A stretch of DNA of 28,040 bases, taken from positions 1 to 28,040 of the IMG/VR virus record IMGVR_UViG_2778261689_000008; one strand, written 5' to 3'. This document shows, piece by piece, positions 3,227 through 26,431 of the stretch. How positions within the stretch are numbered: the first letter of the stretch is position 1; each line of letters opens with the position of its first letter. Made by a program: the position numbers and the translations under genes. This DNA comes from a virus (taxonomy: Duplodnaviria > Heunggongvirae > Uroviricota > Caudoviricetes). The notes below the pieces were generated by a model that had not been told where the DNA came from, did not search any database, and worked only from the letters and a program-made list of their open reading frames with translations.

Positions 3227-4275
3227 GAAATCGTCCCCAGAACCGCCAGTTCATTTTTCGCAATGGAGATATTGTCTGCCGGTGCAAGCAACTGATGGCT
3301 ATATTCCCCGTTCGCACCGGAAATCGCCTCACTGATACGCGATACCTTCAGTTCTCCCTGCGGATAACCATCACGCAGAAGAAACGAACGCAACTCCGCG
3401 GTGATGGCGGCTCGTATTTCTGGTGTGTCCGGCGTCACGCGGATATGAAAATCCACCGTATGTGCCACCGGCCTGAATACATACAAATCAGAGCCTGCCA
3501 CCGGGGCCAGTGGCACGATATGTTGTCTTGCTGCCGTTTCCGTTGATTCTTCCGGAATGGGATTAATCAGGTCACTGCTGGCAATCATCACACCGACAGT
3601 TCCCGTTCCCATCCAGTGACGGTATGTCCATGCGCGGGTAATGCCGGGCACTTCTTTAGCCCAGACGACATAGTCCCCGTCAGCCCCGCCCTGAGGCGTC
3701 CAGTAATACCGCTCAATGACGCGGGCGCGCCACGTTTCCAGCTCTTCAGTATCAAATCCGCCTGTAAGGGTGTCAGCCACACCGGAAGACGGCAGACCAT
3801 TCACCGGCGTGACCAGGATTAATGCCGTACCGTCGTCAGCGTTACCGACCGCACCTGCACTTGAGCAGGCGATCGGCACGCGCAGGACACCACCGGAGCT
3901 GGTTGCATCGGCAGTTGCCGTGTACTGAACCAGGTCATCGCGCTGAATAACACTCCCGGCGGTCACCTTCAGGCCATCGCTGACACCTTCCCAGCGCATA
4001 TACCCGCTGGCAGCCGTGGCCCCCTTGCGCGGACACCGTTTCATCGCAGCATGTCGCGCCAGCCAGGACTCATCGCACAGGTCAGGCAGCATGTTCATTG
4101 CCAGATAATCGATGTAACCGTAAACCGTATGCAGCGCCGCCGCATACACCTTTGCCCGCACGTCTTCATCCATGCGCCGGAGCGTGTCGCTGACGTCCAG
4201 CCTGGCGAATAAATCGTTACGGAGCATACTGATATTTTCTGCCAGCGTCGGGCGCTGAAATTCACTGTCCGCCAT
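3217..4275 (-). CDS. Baseplate J-like protein (Mu gp47-like)
   Basis: 352 aa; position in the Mu-like baseplate gene order; overlapping start/stop with neighbours. Confidence 0.7.
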
Positions 4276-24651: not shown

Positions 24652-25008
24652 TTAATTGTGCTTTATTCCTTCAAGCGTTGCCTTCATACCAACCAAAGAA
24701 ATGTTTAGCTCTCCAACTTTCTCAGGGCTATATAATTCAGAATGAAGCCAATATTCTGATTTATCTAAACATCTTTTAGCCAGCTCTCGATCAAAGTCTA
24801 CGACTTGGGAAGACGCTTCATACCAAAGCCTATAAAGTTTTTCTTCTTCGTTTGGGTTATTAGGCTCACCACGTTTTAATTTTTCAGTATATAAAATTGT
24901 TGAACAAATCGCAGGAGTTAATCCAGTGATTGCCCTCTGCCGCAGATCGGATTTGTTTGTTATCCACCCTAACAGACGATCTCCCATCCATGTGATAATT
25001 GTATCCAT
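24652..25008 (-). CDS. AT-rich orphan protein, 118 aa, no recognised family
   Basis: Track ORF, visibly AT-rich relative to flanking phage genes; GAAGGG 9 nt upstream of the ATG. Confidence 0.55.
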   Translation of the reverse strand: MDTIITWMGDRLLGWITNKSDLRQRAITGLTPAICSTILYTEKLKRGEPNNPNEEEKLYRLWYEASSQVVDFDRELAKRCLDKSEYWLHSELYSPEKVGELNISLVGMKATLEGIKHN

Positions 25009-25469
25009 GCTTTAGCCCTTCTTAGTAAATAGTGTGTAGGGCGACTGAAGGACCGAGTTTATGCTTTTTCGCATTGCTTTCAGTTAGTACACCGGTATCG
25101 CACCGGAAACAATCCTACGGCAAATTGGTTGTCTGACCTCTCGGTTTTTCGTGCATTAACCGATACCCACTACAGTCTCGGCGAAAGCTGCACACCCCCA
25201 GGGTGTACTGGTAGCACTCGGCACAGCCTAGCACGCCACTTTCTTCTCACTATCCAGTCTAATTTTATCCCCTAGTCAGACACTCAGATGTAGTGCTCCG
25301 CAGCGGCATGCGGGGGAATACAAAAACTCGGACAAAATTGGGCCCTCCTTTTTGAATCACTCGCGGGGATGTAGTTATTAATACATGGAAAAAGATCTGT
25401 TTTCAAATCCAACATTATATGGTTTCAATACCACGGGGTGGCTATGTGTTTCTCATTGTTAATTGGAAT
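25009..25469 (-). other. ORF-free 460-bp region rich in short stems; candidate structured non-coding RNA or regulatory region
   Basis: No ORF of 60 aa or more on either strand and only 15-20 codon ORFs with weak RBSs by manual scan; multiple short inverted repeats (ccggtatcgcaccgg, acaccc-cca-gggtgt, ccgca-gcggca-tgcgg, tcggtt...aaccga, gggccc). Confidence 0.3.
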
Positions 25470-26078
25470 CTACTGTAATCGATCCGAACGTAAATGCGGC
25501 AAAACTCGACTCCACTTATCATCCTGCCACGGCCGGAATTTTACATGCGCCGTTTCTCTGGCAAGGATTGCTCGCGCCTTGCTGAGTATCAGGGGATATT
25601 CCTGACTGATAGAAGTAAAGCGACCGGCTTCGCGGTGCTCCGCAACCTGAAGAAGTGGAGTAACGTTCTGGCAGGCGATTAACATCGTATCACTTGCTCG
25701 CCATAACCAGGCGAGTGTGCAAAGTTCGTTATCAGTGAATTGTTTTGTGATTGGTGATTGTTGAACTTCTCGATCGAGAATATCCAGCACCCAGCGGCGG
25801 AATTCTTTGGCCACAGGAGTACGAGCAAACATGGCGATCAAATGGGCTCCGCGAAGGCTAAATACTCGAGACTCCTGCATTCCACGAGGGGTGGTCACTT
25901 TGACCACCCTTGTCATCATATCTGTGAATTCATCTGAGTGCCGAGAGTAAATGCGCTGAACTGCTTTATCGTCCGCATATTCCAGTGCTAAACCAACTTC
26001 AGTGGCAGTAAGCCAAATTCTGTTATTGTGGCAAATCGGGGTAAACGTCGTTTTGTGGAATGCTAATTGAGTAGTCAT
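25470..26078 (-). CDS. Bro-N / antirepressor-like protein (tentative)
   Basis: 202 aa; the N-terminal half (FHKTTFTPICHNNRIWLTATEVGLALEYADDKA...) resembles Bro-N/KilA-N antirepressor domains. Confidence 0.55.
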   Translation of the reverse strand: MTTQLAFHKTTFTPICHNNRIWLTATEVGLALEYADDKAVQRIYSRHSDEFTDMMTRVVKVTTPRGMQESRVFSLRGAHLIAMFARTPVAKEFRRWVLDILDREVQQSPITKQFTDNELCTLAWLWRASDTMLIACQNVTPLLQVAEHREAGRFTSISQEYPLILSKARAILARETAHVKFRPWQDDKWSRVLPHLRSDRLQ

Positions 26079-26233
26079 AGTATCACCTCATCAGGTTAAC
26101 CATCACCACCAACGACGCCAATCGACTGGTGGTGAACTGTGTAAGGTTGGCGTAACCGGCTACTCAAACCCGGCGCTTCCGAAGAAGCCCTCACACAGCC
26201 CACCATAATTTGGGCATAGCCGTGCTTAGCGCA

Positions 26234-26256
26234 CAAAAAAACCGCTTAACGCGGTA
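26234..26256 (-). terminator. Intrinsic terminator-like hairpin with U7
   Basis: Minus strand: ACCGC-GUUAA-GCGGU followed by UUUUUUUG; lies between the small hydrophobic ORF and the Bro-N-like gene. Confidence 0.4.
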
Positions 26257-26341
26257 TGCGTTGAGTAGTATCCCGGGACGCCAATCCCGTGTGCCGATTT
26301 TGCGGCAACGCACAGAATATAGCGCCGGATAAATCATGTCG

Positions 26342-26431
26342 TCAACCCCAGTAAATGGACACCATGATGATCACAGCCATAGCTGCTACAACAGTTACAA
26401 CTACCTCAGGCCAAAACATAACGATTTCCAT
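26342..26431 (-). CDS. Small hydrophobic peptide, 29 aa (trimmed from the 82-aa track ORF)
   Basis: MEIVMFWPEVVVTVVAAMAVIIMVSIYWG with AAAGGTGAT immediately before the ATG; the longer track ORF would start inside repeat B, which is non-coding in copy A. Confidence 0.35.
   Translation of the reverse strand: MEIVMFWPEVVVTVVAAMAVIIMVSIYWG

Follow-up and report, generated by a model that had tools for sequence, protein, structure and literature searches.

Kissing loops occur in the aptamers of riboswitches, and the put RNA of phage HK022 comprises two stem-loops (approximately 70 nt) just downstream of pL and pR. Large RNAs with conserved long-range contacts are, to our knowledge, rare, and those that have come to be understood are usually ribozymes, riboswitches or ribonucleoprotein cores. 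ROOL and GOLLD have been described in one preprint as RNA-only assemblies (bioRxiv 10.1101/2024.12.08.627333). Prophage sRNAs act on host or phage transcripts (PMC4825925; bioRxiv 10.1101/787010), and in the Gifsy-1 operon isrK-orf45-anrP-isrJ the IsrJ sRNA follows the antirepressor gene (PMC4825925).

The window analysed here, a stretch of 28,040 nt, belongs to a lambda-like E. coli prophage of the DLP12 type and spans its late and nin region, with the genes on the minus strand; here the NinB-family gene ybcN comes next after an AT-rich orphan (Table 1). The original prediction drew attention to an apparently empty gap upstream of that orphan (25009-25469), as a structured non-coding RNA or a dense regulatory region. 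That both strands are free of ORFs of 60 aa or more there is borne out, the gap holding only ORFs of 20-48 codons, and "dense regulatory region" proves a poor description of its contents. We conclude with high confidence that the gap contains a real, uncatalogued family of structured RNA belonging to the lambda-like prophages of enterobacteria; our confidence in any account of how this RNA works is low. E. coli and the lambda-like phages are the most thoroughly studied of systems, yet the RNA is absent from Rfam 15 and from the literature found by topic and by sequence string, and in current annotations the region is either empty or occupied by spurious small CDS.

A self-contained module among exchanged neighbours

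The genes elsewhere in the window had been described as overlapping or less than 40 bp apart, which does not hold throughout, as 26079-26341 is a second ORF-poor stretch. The latter contains the C4 and isrK RNAs of a P1-immI-like control module (26125-26345, minus strand) upstream of the Bro-N/P22AR_C gene, composed of known families and identical in layout to Gifsy-1 isrK-orf45-anrP. ARAGORN called neither a tRNA nor a tmRNA.

Table 1. Coordinates, in the window, of the RNA, its predicted structural elements and the adjoining features
Feature	Position	Strand	Remarks
Conserved ncRNA core, ~330 nt	25041-25370	minus	from AUCCCCGCGAG to UCAGUCGCC
-35-like hexamer TTGAAA	25401-25406	minus	TTG conserved; promoter inferred
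-10-like hexamer ATTAAT	25377-25382	minus	ends 6 nt before first base of P1; promoter inferred
Domain I	25267-25370	minus	RNAalifold and manual structure
P1	25365-25370 with 25267-25272	minus	closes three-way junction of domain I
P2 arm	25310-25364	minus	inside domain I
P3 hairpin	25281-25305	minus	inside domain I
P3 loop CACUAC	25290-25295	minus	5' half of loop-loop (kissing) contact; pairing in all sequences
Domain II	25043-25259	minus	multi-helix, closed by P4, holds P5-P11
P4	25254-25259 with 25043-25048	minus	closes domain II
P5 arm	25183-25243	minus	domain II
P6	25190-25208	minus	domain II
P7	25159-25182	minus	domain II
P7 loop GUAGUG	25168-25173	minus	3' half of loop-loop (kissing) contact; pairing in all sequences
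P8	25140-25145 with 25052-25057	minus	domain II
P9	25127-25138	minus	domain II
P10	25092-25106	minus	domain II
P11	25061-25074	minus	domain II
Spacer, RNA to orphan start codon	25009-25040	minus	terminator absent; -6.9 kcal/mol, z = -0.4
118-aa AT-rich orphan (phrog_12412)	24652-25008	minus	borders gap downstream
Bro-N/P22AR_C antirepressor-type gene (ant)	25470-26078	minus	borders gap upstream
C4 antisense RNA	26125-26210	minus	Rfam match
c4-a1b1/isrK RNA	26235-26322	minus	Rfam match; own terminator 26255-26241
Sigma-70-like promoter of P1-immI-like module	26345-26316	minus	

Conservation beyond this prophage, which the original prediction had proposed to seek by BLASTN, was found in E. coli genomes, phages and IMG/VR contigs. 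It sets in sharply at AUCCCCGCGAG (25370) and extends as far as UCAGUCGCC (about 25041), and the core so delimited is 72-100% identical and almost indel-free across 25-31 distinct sequences while both flanks change. All members measure 339-341 nt, and they fall into approximately 6-8 lineages, the most divergent members being 72-80% identical. Of 5,426 complete E. coli genomes, 159 carry the module; in 158 of these carriers the gap, of 461 bp, is 95-100% identical, and it is unannotated in every case. Four sequenced phages and about 60 IMG/VR contigs also carry the module, the block being 100% identical in many E. coli genomes and in the coliphages Turner and IdasGreatGrand. Klebsiella phage Kp4856-1 has a block that aligns with window positions 25042-25396 at ~78% identity and lies between two different flanking genes, encoding a dATP/dGTP pyrophosphohydrolase upstream and an unrelated 183-aa protein downstream.

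Each of three different conserved patterns retrieves the same ~62 IMG/VR loci. A metagenome scan yielded six new sequences, of which five differ from known variants by no more than 5% and the sixth probably contains many errors; an 18-mer scan of GTDB species genomes produced chance matches only, the module was absent from plasmids, and blastn with divergent members returned the same four phage records and nothing further. Among 80 closely related ybcN-bearing prophage loci, a covariance model of domain I detected the RNA in ten, all known copies, and no divergent copies. As far as sampled, the family is confined to lambda-like prophages of Enterobacteriaceae.

At least four different genes are found upstream of this RNA, and at least five arrangements downstream. 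The former include Ant, a TagO-like lipoprotein accompanied by a 3' remnant of ant, and dATP/dGTP pyrophosphohydrolases, among others; the latter consist of the 118-aa orphan, a 178-aa protein with two transmembrane segments, the 183-aa protein, a pair of 95-aa and 162-aa proteins, or a NinB-like DUF1367 protein directly. E. coli strain 3426 and other prophages provide further contexts, and at one locus (L012) the RNA and its terminator are followed by the NinB-like gene with no accessory gene between. The downstream proteins lack Pfam and PADLOC matches, and are assigned only to PHROGs of "unknown function". Together these observations describe a self-contained module, maintained by purifying selection as the genes around it are swapped.

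The orphan illustrates this pattern. Its relatives occupy 47 IMG/VR loci (L195-L241), all behind the RNA, even at 75% amino acid identity; domain I lies directly ahead at a fixed distance in 45 of them, the remaining two being either cut or rearranged. A frameshift shortens the orphan to ~67 aa at 24 of these 47 loci, where the RNA is intact. The orphan is probably co-transcribed with the RNA in the window variant, as one of several interchangeable downstream genes. More broadly, the RNA adjoins a slot of exchanged AT-rich accessory genes, and may help to explain how prophage cargo is expressed or insulated.

These contexts bear directly on the partnership envisaged in the original prediction, in which the RNA would serve the Bro-N-like gene or the orphan as an antitoxin, after the manner of type III toxin-antitoxin systems, or as a dedicated regulator. 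The order of promoter, RNA, terminator and ORF does resemble that of toxI-toxN loci, and the orphan is always found behind the RNA. However, most relatives carry unrelated genes in place of Ant upstream, the genes downstream share no homology and match no toxin, the RNA is kept in the half of the orphan loci where the orphan is truncated, and the tandem repeats typical of type III antitoxins are missing, Tandem Repeats Finder (minimum score 30) returning no rows for the element. The partnership is therefore largely refuted by context, and we allow it next to no probability.

The boundary upstream of the RNA is also visible in two E. coli prophages (L005 and L006, ~3464-3640), where a remnant of the 3' end of ant still lies ahead of the RNA, and the TagO-like lipoprotein gene, with its own terminator, has taken the place of the rest of ant, placing the mosaic junction just upstream of the RNA. 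Separately, the 183-aa gene of Kp4856-1 (phrog_27260; L003 3394-3945) encodes near its C-terminus the motif RHNLLH, which was spotted by eye and matches the Rx4H form typical of HEPN RNases.

Fold, strand and coding potential

The gap had been characterized as hairpin-rich, a description that single-sequence folding does not sustain, since the energies are within chance. Relative to dinucleotide shuffles, folding of the 330-nt core gives a minimum free energy with z = -1.1 for the minus strand and +0.06 for the plus strand, such that thermodynamic stability is insignificant as a sign of structure; a repeat finder reports a single palindrome, near the promoter-like element described below. Four inverted repeats named in the original prediction are all where it placed them, yet two of them are broken in Klebsiella-type variants. 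The ccggtatcgcaccgg repeat (P10) and the acaccc..gggtgt repeat (P6) are maintained by compensatory changes among relatives, while the arms of the ccgca..tgcgg and tcggtt..aaccga hairpins pair with other segments in the Klebsiella-type variants. The region exceeds chance because the 330-nt block is conserved across changing flanks and covaries at the level of helices.

RNAalifold predicted 82 pairs, compensatory changes occurring in 13, and its output was refined by hand and by a helix scan into a final model of 92 pairs in 16 helices. When applied to alignment A3, this model is 96.9% paired, vs 36-45% in slid registers, in which the 3' partners were shifted by 1-3 columns. Its pairs that change on both sides number 19 (vs 1-6 slid), its covariation score is 0.202 (vs 0.04-0.06 slid), and the observed values were reached in none of 500 shuffles; the covariation analysis suggested in the original prediction thus returns 19 pairs with compensatory changes. 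As only ~6-8 lineages are available, covariation at single pairs is noisy, and it is the helix-level and slid-register controls which carry the argument. A single-column covariation scan for further tertiary pairs was likewise too noisy.

The model indicates a minus-strand transcript with a conserved two-domain fold. Domain I is mostly invariant in sequence, and support for its helices therefore consists of G-U/A-U exchanges and one compensatory pair; a covariance model built on this domain (R1) scores 127 bits at the window copy. In domain II, compensatory changes are found in P4, P5, P5b, P6, P7, P8, and P10. The two domains are predicted to be joined by a 6-bp helix between the loops of P3 and P7, which is 100% paired and covaries at two of its six pairs, in three co-varying versions (CACUAC/GUAGUG, CGCAAC/GUUGCG, and CACCAC/GUGGUG) plus one U-G variant. 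A second interdomain contact, of 25275-25280 with 25132-25137, is a possible candidate, both sequences being invariant and so devoid of covariation support. The model contains 240 G-U cells vs 6 A-C cells (~40:1), and 28 of its pairs are G-U at some point in the alignment, vs three that are ever A-C. Because G-U so far exceeds A-C, the folded molecule appears to be the minus-strand transcript, which is co-directional with the phage early-right operon.

Long invariant unpaired stretches within the model, such as 25110-25126 and 25075-25088, invite comparison with Hfq- or ProQ-type sRNAs, in that they might constitute seeds for pairing with host or phage mRNAs, presented by the fold. Such a role has precedent in prophage sRNAs (PMC4825925; bioRxiv 10.1101/787010), and would be in keeping with the U-tailed intrinsic terminators present in most relatives, if not in the window variant. 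The RNA is, however, 3-5 times longer than typical sRNAs, and its fixed length, together with the covarying intramolecular loop-loop contact, points to selection on a three-dimensional fold. We therefore regard a base-pairing sRNA as improbable.

Signs of translation were sought in every frame. Variable columns are spread evenly over the three phases (41/44/44), so that codon periodicity is absent, and the longest sense ORF, of 61 codons, stays open in no more than 4 of the 25 variants, its variable columns being distributed 14/17/16 over the codon positions. A 19-codon ORF behind an AAGGAGG motif was rejected, its substitutions being even over codon positions and the ORF unconserved. Antisense stop-free runs of ~110 codons, which occur in some variants, were dismissed as genes on the same two grounds, namely absent conservation and absent codon periodicity. 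The annotation of phage Turner (PP925837) places two small "hypothetical protein" CDS within the RNA (L002 4107-4226 and 4276-4407); neither is conserved in relatives, and they are probably spurious calls. Small-protein readings were rejected because the ORFs are unconserved and lack codon periodicity, and a conserved short protein-coding ORF, which the original prediction had named as contrary evidence, was looked for and none was found. By these measures the region does not code for protein.

The Turner CDS and the antisense runs, along with the mosaic junctions gathered at the edges of the block, might instead suggest that there is no independent RNA here at all, and that the region is a gene in decay, several small protein genes, or a site acting at the level of DNA, in recombination, replication or single-stranded structure. 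Against this stand the coding tests above, and the compensatory changes and 40:1 excess of G-U over A-C, which indicate selection on a transcript of one strand, a single-stranded DNA structure on that strand being a remote possibility. Moreover, each genome carries a single copy of the module, lacking terminal repeats. We consider explanations of this kind very improbable. Conservation, covariation, strand asymmetry and the absent coding signal instead support the structured non-coding RNA that was originally proposed.

Ends of the RNA and its relation to the gene behind it

Upstream of P1, the flank is variable except for two hexamers separated by 17-18 nt. The -35-like box exists as TTGAAA, TTGAAT or TTGTAT, with TTG in all variant types but one, and the -35 region is lost in variant L059. 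The -10-like box of the window reads TTTAAT or TTAAAT in relatives, and its position relative to the AUCCCC at the start of the RNA is constant in all variants. The conserved upstream motif can be written TTG-N19/20-T(T/A)AAT-N6. A strict consensus promoter scan did not call this conserved promoter-like element, and since the -10 hexamer lacks the usual A at position 2, the promoter would be weak or atypical. From the conserved placement of these boxes we infer that the RNA has its own sigma-70-like promoter.

Several features near this element (window 25386-25405 and 25395-25433) are peculiar to the E. coli variant. The -35 box and the spacer are overlapped by an imperfect palindrome (TGGAAAAAGATCT/AGATCTGTTTTCA); two 17-nt direct repeats each contain TTGAAA; and a perfect TATAAT at 25414-25419 (minus strand) has no matching -35 box. 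These could represent an operator or a second start site.

At the other end, four variant types possess a G+C-rich hairpin followed by U7-8, located 5-20 nt after P4. These hairpins comprise three unrelated sequences, and fold at -14 to -19 kcal/mol (z = -2.8 to -4.8). Folding revealed no intrinsic terminator in the window type or the L004 type, and for these two a discrete 3' end is consequently not predicted. The next ORF begins 25-40 nt past the U-tract, or ~33 nt past the RNA, which leaves no room for a promoter, and where a terminator is present the downstream ORF must therefore rely on read-through. Terminators were examined by folding because a terminator scan overlooked a clear example, and its negatives do not amount to absence; the example in question is an intrinsic terminator of -15.2 kcal/mol at ~3950-3990 of the Kp4856-1 locus (AAACCGCCUACCGGCGGUUUUUUUU).

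This arrangement permits two accounts of the RNA. On balance we judge it somewhat probable that the minus strand at 25041-25370 encodes a non-coding RNA of ~330 nt, which is made from its own promoter and acts through its fold. Transcription would start from the weak sigma-70-like promoter that ends 6 nt ahead of the first helix, and in most relatives the intrinsic terminator would cut the transcript, giving a discrete RNA of ~365 nt in a layout like that of a prophage "moron". In the window variant, for want of a terminator, the RNA would form the 5' part of the orphan transcript. The three-dimensional fold would most likely allow the RNA to act in trans, either by self-assembly or as a binder of a ligand or of a protein from host or phage, and the RNA would be neither a plain antisense RNA nor the dedicated partner of either neighbouring gene. 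Where present, the terminator would also throttle transcription into the accessory gene behind the RNA, as a side effect of the layout.

The other account makes the RNA a cis-acting leader, that is, the 5' UTR of the following accessory gene, exerting riboswitch- or attenuator-like control over the accessory-gene slot. It draws on the constant one-strand order of promoter-like element, RNA, terminator (where present) and ORF, on the restriction of the 118-aa orphan to positions behind the RNA, and on the kissing loops known from riboswitch aptamers. We keep this reading in play because the downstream ORFs lack promoters of their own and the window variant lacks a terminator. It must, however, accommodate at least five non-homologous downstream arrangements behind one RNA, including one with no accessory gene (L012), and an RNA that stays intact where the orphan is truncated. 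The terminators are unrelated or absent and lie outside the conserved fold, for which reason a conserved switch between aptamer and expression platform is not visible; in this check, alternative pairings were judged by eye. Finally, 330 nt in two closed domains is large for a leader. Overall, we rate a leader as unlikely, if far from negligible.

A discrete RNA made from its own promoter is favoured because the start is conserved, terminators have arisen repeatedly and independently, and the RNA survives without any particular neighbour. Counting against it, the promoter is proposed from sequence, with a -10 box that lacks the canonical A and, in L059, no -35 box, and the promoter-less ORFs close behind the terminators fit a leader or attenuator too.

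Relation to known RNA families and systems

Rfam 15 (4,227 models), searched with the whole window at the gathering threshold and with the gap (25009-25469) at E up to 10, gave no match in the gap, and the RNA is hence still uncatalogued, in agreement with its original designation as undescribed. In two divergent relatives, the same search at E up to 10 gave chance matches on their terminators only. The related models C4, isrK and c4-a1b1 (clan CL00128; RF01695, RF01394, RF03163) match 26125-26322 and have no match in the gap; nor, at E up to 10, do the models for IsrJ, riboswitches, or the group I intron, which would in addition have to be reconciled with flanks that are unrelated genes in different relatives. 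The ROOL and GOLLD models match neither the gap nor the two divergent relatives.

The HK022 put RNA differs from the new RNA in location, as the latter lies in the nin region, and in size, the latter measuring 330 nt. Cobalamin and lysine riboswitches share with it a multi-helix fold, a loop-loop contact, and a place ahead of an ORF and, in many cases, of a terminator; they differ in that the new RNA has no conserved class of downstream gene, and its terminator lies outside the conserved fold. Nearest in layout is toxI-toxN, with its promoter, structured RNA, intrinsic terminator and read-through-dependent ORF, an order which is reproduced in the four variant types with terminators, and in the window variant without one. 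Unlike toxI, the new RNA is not an array of tandem repeats; the ORFs behind it are unrelated to each other and to ToxN/AbiQ, no conserved endoribonuclease toxin gene being found among the five downstream arrangements by Pfam or PADLOC; and it is conserved while the ORF changes. Nearest in position is IsrJ, as the window variant has the same succession of isrK/C4 module, antirepressor gene and non-coding RNA. IsrJ, however, is 74 nt long, and the new RNA is mostly not beside an antirepressor gene in relatives.

More tentatively, the RNA may found a new class of large, compact phage RNA in E. coli and Klebsiella, a functional three-dimensional machine expressed from the prophage, of which the fixed length and the L3-L7 contact would be the reflection; we hold this bolder reading to be doubtful. 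Such a machine could be a ribozyme, a high-affinity binder of a protein or ligand, or a self-assembling particle like ROOL or GOLLD. If so, the RNA would mark or control a slot in which phages swap accessory, and possibly defence, genes, and its function is directly testable because the host is genetically tractable. ROOL and GOLLD are the nearest in kind to the new RNA, being likewise prophage-borne, several hundred nucleotides long, rich in helices, held by long-range tertiary contacts, and free of an obligate protein partner. They are larger, at ~580-800 nt vs 330 nt, and reside in Firmicutes or lake bacteria, in contrast to the Enterobacteriaceae which host the new RNA. By analogy with these RNA-only assemblies, the loop-loop contact of the new RNA could in principle form between molecules rather than within one.
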